Shown: one piece after another, positions 20,025 through 31,851 of the stretch | How the letters are laid out: each line of letters starts with the position of its first letter | Position numbering within the stretch: the stretch's first letter is position 1 | Program-made: the position numbers and the translations under genes | Assembly (NCBI GenBank): GCA_963718565.1 | Contig: OY970364.1 | Location: 800,001-864,000 of the forward strand | Direction of reading: 5' to 3' | Length of the DNA: 64,000 bases | Source of the DNA: an uncultured Verrucomicrobiae bacterium | Lineage (GTDB): Bacteria > Chlamydiota > Chlamydiia > Chlamydiales > Rhabdochlamydiaceae | The notes under the pieces: generated by a model | Told to the model about the DNA's origin: nothing | Seen by the model: only the letters and a program-made list of their open reading frames with translations | The model's database searches: none

Positions 20025-20438
20025 AGGAACAAGCCTTGATAGATCGATTGTATCTTGATTCATGCATTATGATAGCCCACTTTTCGTCTTCAGAAAAAGA
20101 GGCTGAAAAAAAAGAGCTGGTCAAAACCTGTCTTACAATTTTTTCAAACCTAGCAGATTTTCAATTATGCACCTCACACTGGACTCTCACCGAAACTGTC
20201 AATGTCTTGATATCAAACCATAAAATGAGCGAAGGCGAGGTAGCACAAATCGAATCAGATTTCACTAATAAAAAACGTCTCGGCCCTCTAAAAATTGAAA
20301 TTTTAGGCATGTCCCAAGACAAAACCTATGACTTCCAGGAATTCTGTTATGATGTACGATTAAAAATCCTCGCTCACCATTCAGGGGCTTGTAACAGAAT
20401 CCCTTGAACTTATTCAAACCTGATTATATATTATCAGA

Positions 20439-20861
20439 ATGAACAAGTTTTTAAGCATTCAGGAAGCAGCAAAATGTTTGGGAGTTTCTCCACAAACACT
20501 CCGCCGATGGGAAAGACACAAGAAAATCGTTCCCTGTCATCGCATACAGGGCAGCCAACGCCGCTATAGTCTCACTCAGTTACAGCCATTTAATTGCGGA
20601 GATAAAACCTCTGATCGTCTAACTGTTGCCTACGCAAGAGTTTCGAGTCATGATCAAAAAGAAGATTTACAACGACAAGTCCATATGTTAGAAATTTACT
20701 GCTTTGCAAAAGGATGGGTGTTTTCGGTAACCAAAGACCTCGGTTCCGGGATGAACTATAATAAACGTGGGCTAAAACAACTGCTTGAGCAAAATGGTTC
20801 AAGAAGCCATAAGAACAAACAGCTTTTGGCCAACCTTCAAAATGCGGTCGCCAATGTCTAA
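20439..20861 (+). CDS. tnpA: IS607 serine transposase TnpA, internally deleted
   Basis: MerR-like HTH (AAKCLGVSPQTLRRWE), YARVSSHDQKEDL, GSGMNYNKRGL; lacks the DRLxRFG segment. Confidence 0.88.
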   Translation: MNKFLSIQEAAKCLGVSPQTLRRWERHKKIVPCHRIQGSQRRYSLTQLQPFNCGDKTSDRLTVAYARVSSHDQKEDLQRQVHMLEIYCFAKGWVFSVTKDLGSGMNYNKRGLKQLLEQNGSRSHKNKQLLANLQNAVANV

Positions 20862-29183: not shown

Positions 29184-31851
29184 TCAAGTTTTGAAGAGCG
29201 GTGCAAGTGCCGGGGAAGGATATGTCGGAACCGATGCTAAATTGCCCCACATTATTGCTCATGGTTGAATCACTTGTTGAATTGAATGTGCCACCAGATT
29301 TGGTGAATGTATATGCACTGGTACCACTGCTAGGAGTGGCCGTGTTGTTGGTAAAATCTAGGCACAACGAACCTCCTGAAACTGTAATAGTTGTCGCAAA
29401 TCCACTGGGCAGGCCCGTGTCTCCACCAAAAGTGTCATCAGATATCACTACTGAGGCATTACTGGCCGACAAGTTGTATTGGATACCGTGGCTGGAGTTG
29501 TTAATACCGCTGAAAGTGTCACTAGACGAAGTGAAGGTGGTGTTTGATACGGCGTTGATGATGGCACTGCTACTGCTATTAATAGTGCTAAAGGTGTTCC
29601 TGGACGAATTGAAAGTAATGATTGAGGCCTCGTTGTAGATGCCAACGCTACTGTTGTTAATCTGATTGAAAATGCTACGAGACATAGTGAGGGTAGTGAT
29701 GGAGCCTGCGCCGTTAGAGATGCCGATGCTACTGTCTAAACTGTCAAAAATGTCACCAGACAAAGTGAGGGTAGTGATGGAGCCTGTGTTGAAGATGGCG
29801 GAGCTGTTAGTCAAATTGCTGAAAGTATTACCGGATAAAGTGAAGGTGGTGATTGGGCTGCCGGTGTAGATGACGGAGGCACCGGTTACATTGCTGAAAG
29901 TGTTACCGGACAAGGTGAGGGTGGTGATTGAGGTCCCGTTGACGATGCCGTTGGTAGCGGTTAAATTGCTGAAAGTGTTATCGGATAAAGTGAAGGTGGT
30001 GATTGGGCTGCCGGTGTAGATGCCTTCCCCGCCACCGGATAAAGTGCTAAAAGTGTTCCCGGACAAGGTGAAGGTGGTGATTGAGCCATTGGTATAGATG
30101 CTGCTGCCACCAGTTAAATTGCTGAAAGTGTTATCGGATACAGTGAAGGTGGTGATAGGGTCGCCGGTGTAGATGCCGACGCTACCATTGGTTAAATTGT
30201 TGAAAGTGTTATCGGATACAGTGAAGGTGGTGATAGGGTCGCCAGTGCCGATACCGTAGCCACTGCTTAAATCGCTGAAAGTATTCCCGGACGAAATGAG
30301 GCTAGTGATTGAGCCATTGGTAAAAATCCCATTGCCTCCAATACCCCCGCTCGGGTCGCTGATATTGCTGAAGTTACTTGCTGTGACATTCAGAGTGTTT
30401 AGGGTGCCGCCGTCAATATAGATGCCGTTGCCATTGTTACTCATATCGGTACAAGTAAAGCCACTAAAGGAACTGTTATTGATGAGAAGATTACCGGATG
30501 AGTTGGCAAGATCAATGCCATTTGTCGCGATGGTAGTGGGGGAGGTAAAAGTGCTGCTATCGACAGTGAGATTGGTGATGCCATTGCCATAAAGGCCGTT
30601 CGAGCTGTCTATGGCCGTCGTGATATATAGCCCTGATATGGTATTATTGTTGGCTAATGTGACAATATTGCCGGATTCATTGGTGAGCATGGGCAGACTA
30701 GAAGCTGTAGGGGCAATGGTGATCTGGCCTAAAGTTGTGGGGATTGTAAGAGCTACGGACGCTCCGCACAATATTTGGTTGTCCTGCAGAGCAATACCAT
30801 CCGACAGGCCATTTGTGGTGCCATCTCCGGGGAATATATAAATGGCTTGGTTTTTCGACGAGGCGTTTTGAGCACCTAAGAGGGTGGCAAATGGATTTTC
30901 AAAAGTGCCGGCCGAGTGGCTTGTGTTGTCAACAAACCAAAACACCCAAGGTTGACCGGTTGCTGGATTGATTGCAGGTGTGATGACGTGCCTCTTGCTT
31001 ACGGGAATAATCTCTGCGCGGTCAATCGATTGTACGGCGCGCGCATAGAGGGTCATTTTCTCGCACTGCTTCTTCTTGTTTCTTCCGCCAAAAGAGACGT
31101 TGACGCTGATCTGCCCTTGCCCTGTCCATTTAAAGAAGTGGTCGTAGCTGACACTCGCTTCTAATCGCAAGTAACGTTTGAAGAGATCGACCCTCCCACG
31201 GAACTCACCACCCCACGTCGTTTTCATCCTCCCCGTTAAATAGTAGGGCCCCCCCGCAAAATAGAGCGGGGCTGTTTTGAAATGATCGACGTGGGCGCCC
31301 ACCTCTGCATTCACTCCCCCAAGAGCAAACTCTTGGGAGTATTTGAGGAGCACGTAGTTCTTTTTGAATTCATAAAATTCGGCGTGATAAGGGCGGCTCA
31401 CCTTTTTACCAACGGGTAAGTAGCCATTCACTCGATAATCCCATACAGAACCCAAACTTTCGAATCCTATGGCGGCCTGATTGTAATGGAAATGCGAGGT
31501 ATTCCGATAATCGTAGTAGGTATTAACACCCCAAACACGCGCATCTGTGAGAAGGCGCACTCCTAAACCTGCATTGGCAGCGAACCTACCGTTGTCAAAC
31601 ACATGCCCGCGCACATCTAAGAAAGGGAGCCAACATCCATTGAACGGTGTTGGCCTTGCGAAAAACCCTTCCAATGTCGTGTAACCTTGTTTGTAACCGA
31701 TCCCCTTTGGACTCGTATAACGAGCGCCAACACGCATGGACTGCAAAGGTTTGCACGACGTCTCATTAATCTTTGATTCCGTTGCAAAAAGATTCAATGC
31801 ACACAAACTACTCACGAGGAGGGAACGTTTCAACATAGGAGCACACCTCAA
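29164..31851 (-). CDS. Inverse-autotransporter beta-domain protein with beta-helix repeat passenger (putative adhesin)
   Basis: Signal peptide; barrel region (PFLDVRGH...ANAGLGVR...GVNTYYDYR...RVNGYLP); GTFENPFATL; about 25-aa repeats xIYTGxxITTFTLSxNTFSNL. Confidence 0.8.
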   Translation of the reverse strand: MRCAPMLKRSLLVSSLCALNLFATESKINETSCKPLQSMRVGARYTSPKGIGYKQGYTTLEGFFARPTPFNGCWLPFLDVRGHVFDNGRFAANAGLGVRLLTDARVWGVNTYYDYRNTSHFHYNQAAIGFESLGSVWDYRVNGYLPVGKKVSRPYHAEFYEFKKNYVLLKYSQEFALGGVNAEVGAHVDHFKTAPLYFAGGPYYLTGRMKTTWGGEFRGRVDLFKRYLRLEASVSYDHFFKWTGQGQISVNVSFGGRNKKKQCEKMTLYARAVQSIDRAEIIPVSKRHVITPAINPATGQPWVFWFVDNTSHSAGTFENPFATLLGAQNASSKNQAIYIFPGDGTTNGLSDGIALQDNQILCGASVALTIPTTLGQITIAPTASSLPMLTNESGNIVTLANNNTISGLYITTAIDSSNGLYGNGITNLTVDSSTFTSPTTIATNGIDLANSSGNLLINNSSFSGFTCTDMSNNGNGIYIDGGTLNTLNVTASNFSNISDPSGGIGGNGIFTNGSITSLISSGNTFSDLSSGYGIGTGDPITTFTVSDNTFNNLTNGSVGIYTGDPITTFTVSDNTFSNLTGGSSIYTNGSITTFTLSGNTFSTLSGGGEGIYTGSPITTFTLSDNTFSNLTATNGIVNGTSITTLTLSGNTFSNVTGASVIYTGSPITTFTLSGNTFSNLTNSSAIFNTGSITTLTLSGDIFDSLDSSIGISNGAGSITTLTMSRSIFNQINNSSVGIYNEASIITFNSSRNTFSTINSSSSAIINAVSNTTFTSSSDTFSGINNSSHGIQYNLSASNASVVISDDTFGGDTGLPSGFATTITVSGGSLCLDFTNNTATPSSGTSAYTFTKSGGTFNSTSDSTMSNNVGQFSIGSDISFPGTCTALQNLIKPDHI
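29640..30320 (-). repeat. Intragenic tandem repeats of about 72-78 bp
   Basis: Recurrent GCTGAAAGTGTTATCGGATA(C/A)AGTGAAGGTGGTGAT units. Confidence 0.85.

Follow-up and report, generated by a model that had tools for sequence, protein, structure and literature searches.

We analysed a window of 64,000 nucleotides (nt) from the genome of an uncultured bacterium of the family Rhabdochlamydiaceae (Chlamydiota; GenBank assembly GCA_963718565.1), comprising positions 800,001-864,000 of the single 2.28-Mb contig OY970364.1. The window carries two copies of a 1953-bp IS607-family element in which a tnpB gene, encoding a predicted RNA-guided nuclease, follows the remnant of a transposase gene, tnpA. 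Both copies are very probably non-autonomous IS607 derivatives that combine a deleted tnpA with an intact tnpB and a right end specifying a predicted guide RNA (omegaRNA), and that would be mobilised in trans by a TnpA encoded elsewhere in the genome and retained through TnpB-dependent homing. Coordinates are those of the window unless given as genome positions, and the main features are collected in Table 1.

Element ends and copy family

The two copies lie in the same orientation, and an offset of 6863 aligns positions 20380-22339 with 27243-29202. With the terminal GG counted on both sides, the element occupies 20386-22338 in copy 1 and 27249-29201 in copy 2, and the copies show 99.64% identity, with seven mismatches (copy 1 positions 20403, 21513, 21550, 21649, 21785, 21867 and 22077). 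In both, the left boundary reads GG/CTTGTAACAG and the right boundary GAAGAGC/GG (the slash marks the boundary); an earlier note on this DNA, made from the letters alone, had described 1953-bp copies with these same ends, and the offset alignment confirmed them. The left terminus begins with CTTG and the right terminus closes with GAGC, without terminal inverted repeats. In the IS607 manner, GG was present at 15/15 left and 14/14 right junctions with no target-site duplication, and tnpB lies 3' of tnpA on the same strand. The boundaries are well beyond chance, as the source genome contains 15 left and 14 right ends set in unrelated flanking sequence.

BLAST of the element against the source genome returned 27 segments. 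Seven are full 1953-bp copies (99.3-100% identity) with unrelated flanks, an insert of 1.1 kb splits one further copy close to the right end, and the remaining segments are internally deleted copies, solo left ends and solo right ends. An imperfect block of about 27 nt is common to the left and right ends in inverted orientation, and the left-end palindromic block is kept in relatives; it is likely a TnpA-binding subterminal repeat. In the left end of copy 1, a promoter-like TTGAAC-17-TATATT (20404-20432) overlies this block, the number of such promoter-like sites being not above shuffled expectation.

The 1.1-kb insert (genome 191126-192241) sits at element positions 1917-1922, which are duplicated, and encodes a 351-amino-acid (aa) DDE_3/HTH_33 transposase on the opposite strand. 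Because it lies inside the right end, the omegaRNA of that copy would be disrupted. The 16 nt that follow a solo 218-bp right end (genome 888343-888576) are present 14 times in the genome; elsewhere they are preceded by TGGAG or GCTAG, and they apparently belong to another repeat family.

Flanking motif, predicted TAM and guides

The flank logo that the earlier note had proposed was built from all copies and showed a G-rich motif upstream of the element. Each of the 15 left ends of the source genome had G at -1, -2 and -3, and 14 also had it at -4, the sole exception being TAGGG at an 891-bp mini-element described below, while position -5 was A in five, T in five, G in three and C in two. A second set of 15 left ends, from related genomes with TnpB identities of 54-88%, gave the same counts for G, 15/15 for each of -1 to -3 and 14/15 for -4. 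When both sets were pooled, G occupied -3 in 30/30 and -4 in 28/30, compared with a background frequency of 0.048 at which GG is preceded by GG in the source genome. The first base of the right flank (+1) was T in 5/14 and is not conserved. Since only GGGG is common to the left ends, the motif is GGGG and not the AGGGGT that had been proposed as a shared target; the A at -5 and the T at +1 are coincidental.

The right end reads G[AG]AGAGC/GG in 21 of 22 related loci (the contig of the 22nd stops before the end), and this consensus extends to Anaerolineae loci with 47-48% TnpB identity. With a right end of GAGC/GG, occupied and empty sites are told apart at -3 alone, by C versus G. By comparison with published IS607 TnpBs, the guide would begin directly after the right boundary, and we infer that GGGG is the transposon-adjacent motif (TAM). 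The predicted guides are unique in the genome and preceded there by AGCGG; for copy 1 a 12-nt seed was checked. A G-rich TAM of about AGGGG had been suggested previously, of which the G-rich part agrees with the flank logo and the A at -5 does not. The right flanks of both copies do begin with the guide starts given in the earlier note, and the arrangement that it assumed, in which the guide follows a CGG end and the core GG forms part of a G-rich TAM, agrees with experiments on other IS607 TnpBs.

Deletion in tnpA and the surviving intact gene

The tnpA remnant keeps its helix-turn-helix (HTH) domain together with the first ~58 and the last ~22 residues of the serine-recombinase domain. The Pfam Resolvase model matched it over profile positions 2-58 of 145 only, and the NCBIfam model transpos_IS607 gave 109.5 bits (cut-off 110) over positions 2-114 of 187. 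A full IS607 TnpA, with HTH and C-terminal catalytic domain, is absent from the window copies; other loci of the genome encode it in the parent form, as do relatives, so the window copies are deletion derivatives of an IS607-family member. The earlier description of the copies as IS607-TnpB elements was incomplete in this respect, as it left out the 66-codon in-frame loss from tnpA.

The deletion comprises 198 bp at ~20793/20794 (element position 408/409), and the same gap was present in 7/7 full copies, in the interrupted copy and in two deletion derivatives. It removes a 66-residue core of the catalytic/dimerisation domain, including the motif HKDRLLRFG, which is identical across 11 relatives, and leaves the region of the nucleophile serine and the HTH in place. 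The tnpB ATG (20854) overlaps the tnpA stop (20859-20861) by 8 nt, ATGTCTAA, and this overlap was also kept because the deletion is in frame.

The 198 extra bp were present at two other loci of the genome, both of which encode an intact 206-aa TnpA scoring 217 bits over the full transpos_IS607 model. One locus (genome 47850-49045) breaks off within tnpB and lacks the right end. The other (genome 1529877-1530767), a mini-element of 891 bp, has both ends; its tnpA is intact, its tnpB is reduced to a remnant of 88 in-frame codons, and of the right end it keeps the final 206 bp. Relatives mostly have the long form, with 666-675 nt from the left end to tnpB compared with 468 nt in the window copies, and their tnpA frames measure 206-208 aa in 10/11, the eleventh stopping at 137 aa.

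Relative to the intact copies and the 11 relatives, the remnant carries the derived substitutions Q27H, T36I, G39S and S89F. These build up stepwise among the copies, and both window copies have all four, indicating that several rounds of transposition followed the deletion. Window-type elements would have been mobilised in trans by the surviving TnpA.

Two related sequences were also observed. In one related genome, a copy bears an independent tnpA deletion that leaves 282 nt instead of 666 nt between left end and tnpB; the other copy in that genome is complete. A metatranscriptome contig of a relative with ~90% identity passes at 20794 into sequence similar to the last part of the missing 198-bp segment, so that this relative seems to carry an undeleted tnpA.

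TnpB protein

The tnpB frame is open in 8/8 full or interrupted copies. Its product matched the NCBIfam model guided_TnpB (NF040570) with 137.4 bits (cut-off 100), residues 9-412 aligning with profile positions 2-389 of 389. The AlphaFold2 model had a mean predicted local distance difference test (pLDDT) score of 82, and the best Foldseek match was ISDra2 TnpB (8h1j; E 2.7e-18; template-modelling (TM) score 0.71, target-normalised), followed by Cas12f structures, ISFba1 TnpB (8iaz, TM 0.64) and Fanzor2 (TM 0.52). Family model and modelled fold agree with the earlier assignment as a predicted RNA-guided nuclease of the TnpB type, and a protein atlas search with TnpB returned generic TnpB clusters only. 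Residues beyond 412 lie outside the guided_TnpB model, residues 458-488 are predicted to be disordered (pLDDT <50), and the frame length in relatives varies from 456 to 489 aa with a variable stop position.

In the HMMER alignment with ISDra2, the catalytic glutamate of IGTEHL faces G319 of IGIGDY. D210-P-N-H-K-N, G319, E365 and R401-D402 were invariant in 20/20 aligned homologues (down to 41% identity), as was the zinc finger C372xxC375...C392xxC395, and the RuvC-I motif was DPN in 24/24 sequences. As judged from this alignment, the catalytic triad retains D210 and D402, glycine occupies the canonical glutamate position, and the invariant E365, six residues ahead of the first CxxC (E365-x6-C372xxC), is a candidate for the alternative glutamate. 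By analogy with other rearranged TnpBs, which have been described as probably active, this RuvC-II site may be active.

The predicted omegaRNA at the right end

The right ends of 20 elements were aligned over 260 nt. RNAalifold yielded 51 pairs, 31 of them with compensatory change. A second structure of 88 pairs, refolded on 17 sequences and scored on the full alignment, had 89.9% of cells paired, compared with 42-48% when the partners were slid by 1-3 columns, and both-side changes in 47 pairs, compared with 16-29 in the slid controls; 0/500 shuffles attained any measure of this structure. G-U cells outnumbered A-C cells (180 vs 51), which fits pairing of the plus strand. The results strongly support a predicted right-end RNA of ~200-250 nt, as read from sequence covariation.

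The predicted scaffold has a core (22142-22338) closed by an invariant helix of GCUC (22145-22148) with GAGC (22333-22336), and two 5' hairpins (22085-22106 and 22116-22134) that are found in chlamydial members. The final ~180-235 nt of tnpB lie within the scaffold. Three independent deletion derivatives keep the right end from element position 1736, 1744 or 1748 to 1953 (206-218 bp). The scaffold had been placed at roughly 22100-22338, and both the covarying structure (from 22085 or 22142 to 22338) and the deletion derivatives are in accord with that estimate. An Rfam search of positions 20000-30000 on either strand gave no match at E <=1, and the right-end RNA is therefore neither of the RAGATH-18 type nor an intron.

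Comparison with known systems

Published systems are compared here as described in the cited sources. In the IS607-family IStron of Clostridium botulinum (Cbo), TnpA integrates into TGGG sites, where the GG core is strict; CboTnpB uses the TAM TGGG, its scaffold ends in UCGG, and the G at -3 is the base most strictly discriminated against its own TCGG; TnpB homing counteracts excision (bioRxiv 10.1101/2023.11.20.567912). The chlamydial element resembles this system in the serine-recombinase type of its TnpA, the GG core at both junctions, the G-rich motif left of the element, the predicted scaffold ending in CGG with the guide directly after it, and the expected distinction of self from donor joint by C or G at -3. 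It differs in having G instead of T at -4, a rearranged RuvC-II and a deletion of tnpA in the full copies. An IStron identity was rejected, as Rfam indicated no group I intron and only 51 nt separate the left boundary from the tnpA ATG.

In ISXfa1 of Xylella fastidiosa the active site is typical and the scaffold measures 144 nt; its TnpB uses the TAM GGG, not CGG, its copies lie in GGG, its guide region is flanked by CGG, and its TnpA repeats overlap the guide-RNA stem-loop (bioRxiv 10.1101/2023.08.09.552727). The element studied here shares the G-rich left flank, the CGG before the guide region and the repeats overlapping the RNA region, whereas its scaffold core is ~200 nt, its protein 488 aa and its glutamate shifted. 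RAGATH-18-type IS607 TnpBs such as ISFba1 (330-433 aa) recognise AGGAG or GAGGG, and the whole of their guide RNA, including the RAGATH-18 motif, is found downstream of the open reading frame (ORF) (PMC11061315). The IS607 association, the G-rich TAM (predicted here) and the fold (8iaz, TM 0.64) are similar; identity with this type was rejected, since the predicted RNA overlaps the ORF and the Rfam search above (20000-30000, E <=1) found no match.

TnpB branches with a rearranged RuvC-II, for example RIIr-5, have the glutamate replaced by glycine, carry an alternative glutamate and are probably active (PMC10691335), and the signature of pro-Fanzor and Fanzor proteins is a RuvC-I DPG together with a C-terminally shifted RuvC-II glutamate (bioRxiv 10.1101/2023.08.09.552727). 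By motif, our TnpB resembles RIIr-5-type branches and pro-Fanzor/Fanzor2 in the glycine at the RuvC-II glutamate position and the alternative glutamate six residues before CxxC. It is not a pro-Fanzor or Fanzor2 protein, as the shifted glutamate is present but RuvC-I reads DPN instead of DPG (24/24). Profile searches gave E 1.2e-18 for ISDra2 TnpB and E 4.5e-17 for the mimivirus Fanzor2 L79, and a special affinity to Fanzor was rejected because neither profile nor fold (TM 0.71 vs 0.52) is closer to Fanzor2 than to ISDra2. A scan of viral contigs found three loci, two covering most of TnpB at 34-36% identity and the third with 88% identity over 17 residues. Identity as TldR was also rejected, given that none of D210, E365 and D402 varies and that tnpB is part of a two-ended multi-copy element.

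Chlamydiae have been reported as TnpB-poor (PMC10691335), so that eight open tnpB copies in a 2.3-Mb genome are mildly unusual. A literature search on IS607 and chlamydia contained no chlamydial IS607 or TnpB study among the matches listed, by title and abstract. G-rich TAMs have already been published for IS607 TnpBs, and a G-rich TAM here is expected and not surprising. What is added here is the motif GGGG, the tnpA deletion together with a tnpA-only mini-element, the rearranged RuvC-II and an omegaRNA structure outside Rfam.

Proposed mechanism and alternatives

We propose that the intact 206-aa serine recombinase TnpA would be made by the 891-bp tnpB-less mini-element and perhaps also by the truncated copy. 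This TnpA would bind the shared subterminal repeats and excise or integrate the 1953-bp elements through the GG crossover. TnpB with its omegaRNA (a scaffold ending in GAGCGG and a guide matching the right flank), if transcribed and processed as predicted, would then cut the rejoined donor site, where the match is preceded by GGGG, and would spare the occupied site, where it is preceded by GCGG, differing at -3 only. Repair from the sister chromosome would restore the element, that is, homing.

Several points weigh against this proposal. The GGGG preference could stem from TnpA alone. The canonical RuvC-II glutamate is absent (G319), so that activity would depend on the alternative one, and the 6 synonymous and 7 non-synonymous tnpB variants among the seven copies are too few to show purifying selection. 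As regards the RNA, the lack of an Rfam match counts against it; the structure was drawn from the alignment on which it was tested, so its lead over the controls is inflated; and the last ~45 nt resemble TnpA-binding palindromes, so that covariation there may partly reflect DNA sites. RNA-library reads gave no usable transcript evidence: two runs yielded only contigs of a ~90% relative, one of these including the intact tnpA segment, and one 171-nt piece (22015-22185), which does not show transcription and was not used as evidence.

Some of these points would be accommodated if the copies were dead relics with an inactive TnpB or a TldR-like binder, and GGGG were the target preference of a former TnpA. 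The replacement of the canonical RuvC-II glutamate by glycine and the broken tnpA in all full copies fit such a view, as does the preference of Cbo TnpA alone for TGGG (bioRxiv 10.1101/2023.11.20.567912). We nevertheless consider it unlikely, because D210, the shifted E365 and D402 are invariant in 20/20 homologues down to 41% identity, the glutamate-to-glycine layout has been published as rearranged and probably active (PMC10691335), the gene is open in 8/8 copies of a recently mobile two-ended element, and it is accompanied by a structure resembling a guide RNA, strongly conserved and terminating precisely at the boundary. That structure might itself reflect a constraint on DNA, through TnpA-binding repeats and the coding of the TnpB C-terminus, and not on RNA; palindromes in its last ~45 nt are common to the left end, and the region codes for TnpB residues ~410-488, which are conserved as protein. 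This explanation is highly improbable: the covarying helices reach ~200-250 nt, whereas Cbo excision needs ~60 bp of the right end (bioRxiv 10.1101/2023.11.20.567912), and the balance of G-U over A-C cells (180 vs 51) fits plus-strand pairing only. The C-terminal residues are moreover partly disordered by prediction (458-488) and beyond 412 outside the family model, with a variable stop position, and the last 206-218 bp are kept in three derivatives without the TnpB body.

It is also conceivable that the 140-aa remnant has a function of its own as a DNA-binding regulator or a dominant-negative inhibitor, which would account for the in-frame deletion of exactly 66 codons, the retained HTH and the promoter-like site overlying the palindromic repeat in the left end. 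An in-frame outcome is, however, one-in-three by chance, and retention of the frame preserves the ATGTCTAA overlap with tnpB, which is a simpler reason. The derived changes fall at conserved positions, including T36I and G39S in RTxGGQRRY, and look like relaxed constraint. A functional remnant is accordingly quite improbable in our judgement, and mobilisation in trans of a tnpA-deleted, tnpB-bearing element remains the explanation we favour.

Insertion sites and neighbouring genes

The rebuilt empty sites are tcAGGGGTag for copy 1 and taAGGGGTgc for copy 2, identical to those given in the earlier note. Its further statement that both restore an intact reading frame held for copy 1, where the empty site yields a single frame that runs for 188 codons from stop to stop and crosses the junction at codon 139. 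A Pfam search with the two halves of this split ORF found no family, and by eye only the product resembles a PIN domain. For copy 2 the statement held in part: this copy sits in a minus-strand gene of 895/898 codons, 7 nt ahead of the native TAA stop, and the empty site gives back the last codons and the stop only. As found, the repeat-rich minus-strand ORF extends into copy 2 (29164-31851).

An orthologous empty site of copy 1 was not found when 400 bp of its left flank were searched against 26 genomes, the source genome included; the sole match in another genome was 24 nt long, at chance level. Public reads gave no contig bridging the element, hence no empty site was seen there, and DNA contigs from two metagenomes cover the element at >=99%.

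The repeat-rich gene beside copy 2, which partially matches an inverse-autotransporter beta domain, holds eleven tandem repeats of 75-78 nt at 29485-30317, detected as well in units of 151-153 nt. Between the two copies, a stretch of 4.9 kb contains a RhuM-family gene (24796-25965, minus strand, Pfam E 4.8e-112) and a DUF3298 gene (26291-26998). Recombination between the direct copies could move or delete this RhuM/DUF3298 segment.

Table 1. Features of the two IS607-family copies and of the genes they interrupt (window coordinates).
Feature	Position	Strand	Remarks
5' part of small ORF split by copy 1	20021-20385	+	3' part at 22339-22487
Left-flank GGGG, copy 1	20384-20387	+	GG 20386-20387 is the crossover dinucleotide; predicted donor-joint TAM
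Left end, copy 1	20388-20438	+	promoter-like site over palindromic block
tnpA remnant, copy 1	20439-20861	+	140 aa; MerR-like HTH and partial serine recombinase
tnpB, copy 1	20854-22320	+	488 aa from ATG
omegaRNA scaffold, copy 1 (predicted)	22085-22338	+	from covariation; ends with crossover GG 22337-22338
Guide, copy 1 (predicted)	22339-22354	+	first 16 nt of right flank; guide length assumed
Left-flank GGGG, copy 2	27247-27250	+	from flank comparison
tnpA remnant, copy 2	27302-27724	+	protein identical to that of copy 1
tnpB, copy 2	27717-29183	+	488 aa, no stops
omegaRNA scaffold, copy 2 (predicted)	28948-29201	+	in register with copy 1; no difference in this stretch
Guide, copy 2 (predicted)	29202-29217	+	first 16 nt of right flank
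Repeat-rich gene, last codons replaced by copy 2	29202-31851	-	partial IAT_beta, E 9.4e-9

Implications

The locus is a clean natural case of the published IS607 logic, with GGGG and GCGG one base apart: the transposase target, the predicted nuclease TAM and the self-protecting right end are set apart by a single base. For a clade of TnpBs that measure ~470-490 aa and carry the catalytic glutamate at a shifted position, it also provides a well-supported, unregistered omegaRNA structure. Few rearranged TnpBs have been studied by experiment, and this clade may offer a compact nuclease that uses GGGG as its TAM.

A broader and speculative reading, which we hold to be improbable, is that an uncharacterised TnpB/omegaRNA lineage (glycine with shifted glutamate, DPN, guide scaffold of ~200 nt outside Rfam) has expanded in the reportedly TnpB-poor Chlamydiae, with the tnpA-less form, which keeps TnpB and omegaRNA, outnumbering its autonomous parent in the source genome by at least 8 to 1 or 2. 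If this were true, the nuclease and guide module, not the transposase, would decide copy success, and chlamydial elements, whose hosts live inside eukaryotic cells, would be plausible stepping stones for shifted-glutamate TnpBs towards eukaryotes and viruses.

The many tnpB-only copies beside a single tnpA-only mini-element indicate that the two functions can separate within one genome. These findings leave the current understanding of IS607 elements unchanged and extend it to environmental Chlamydiae.

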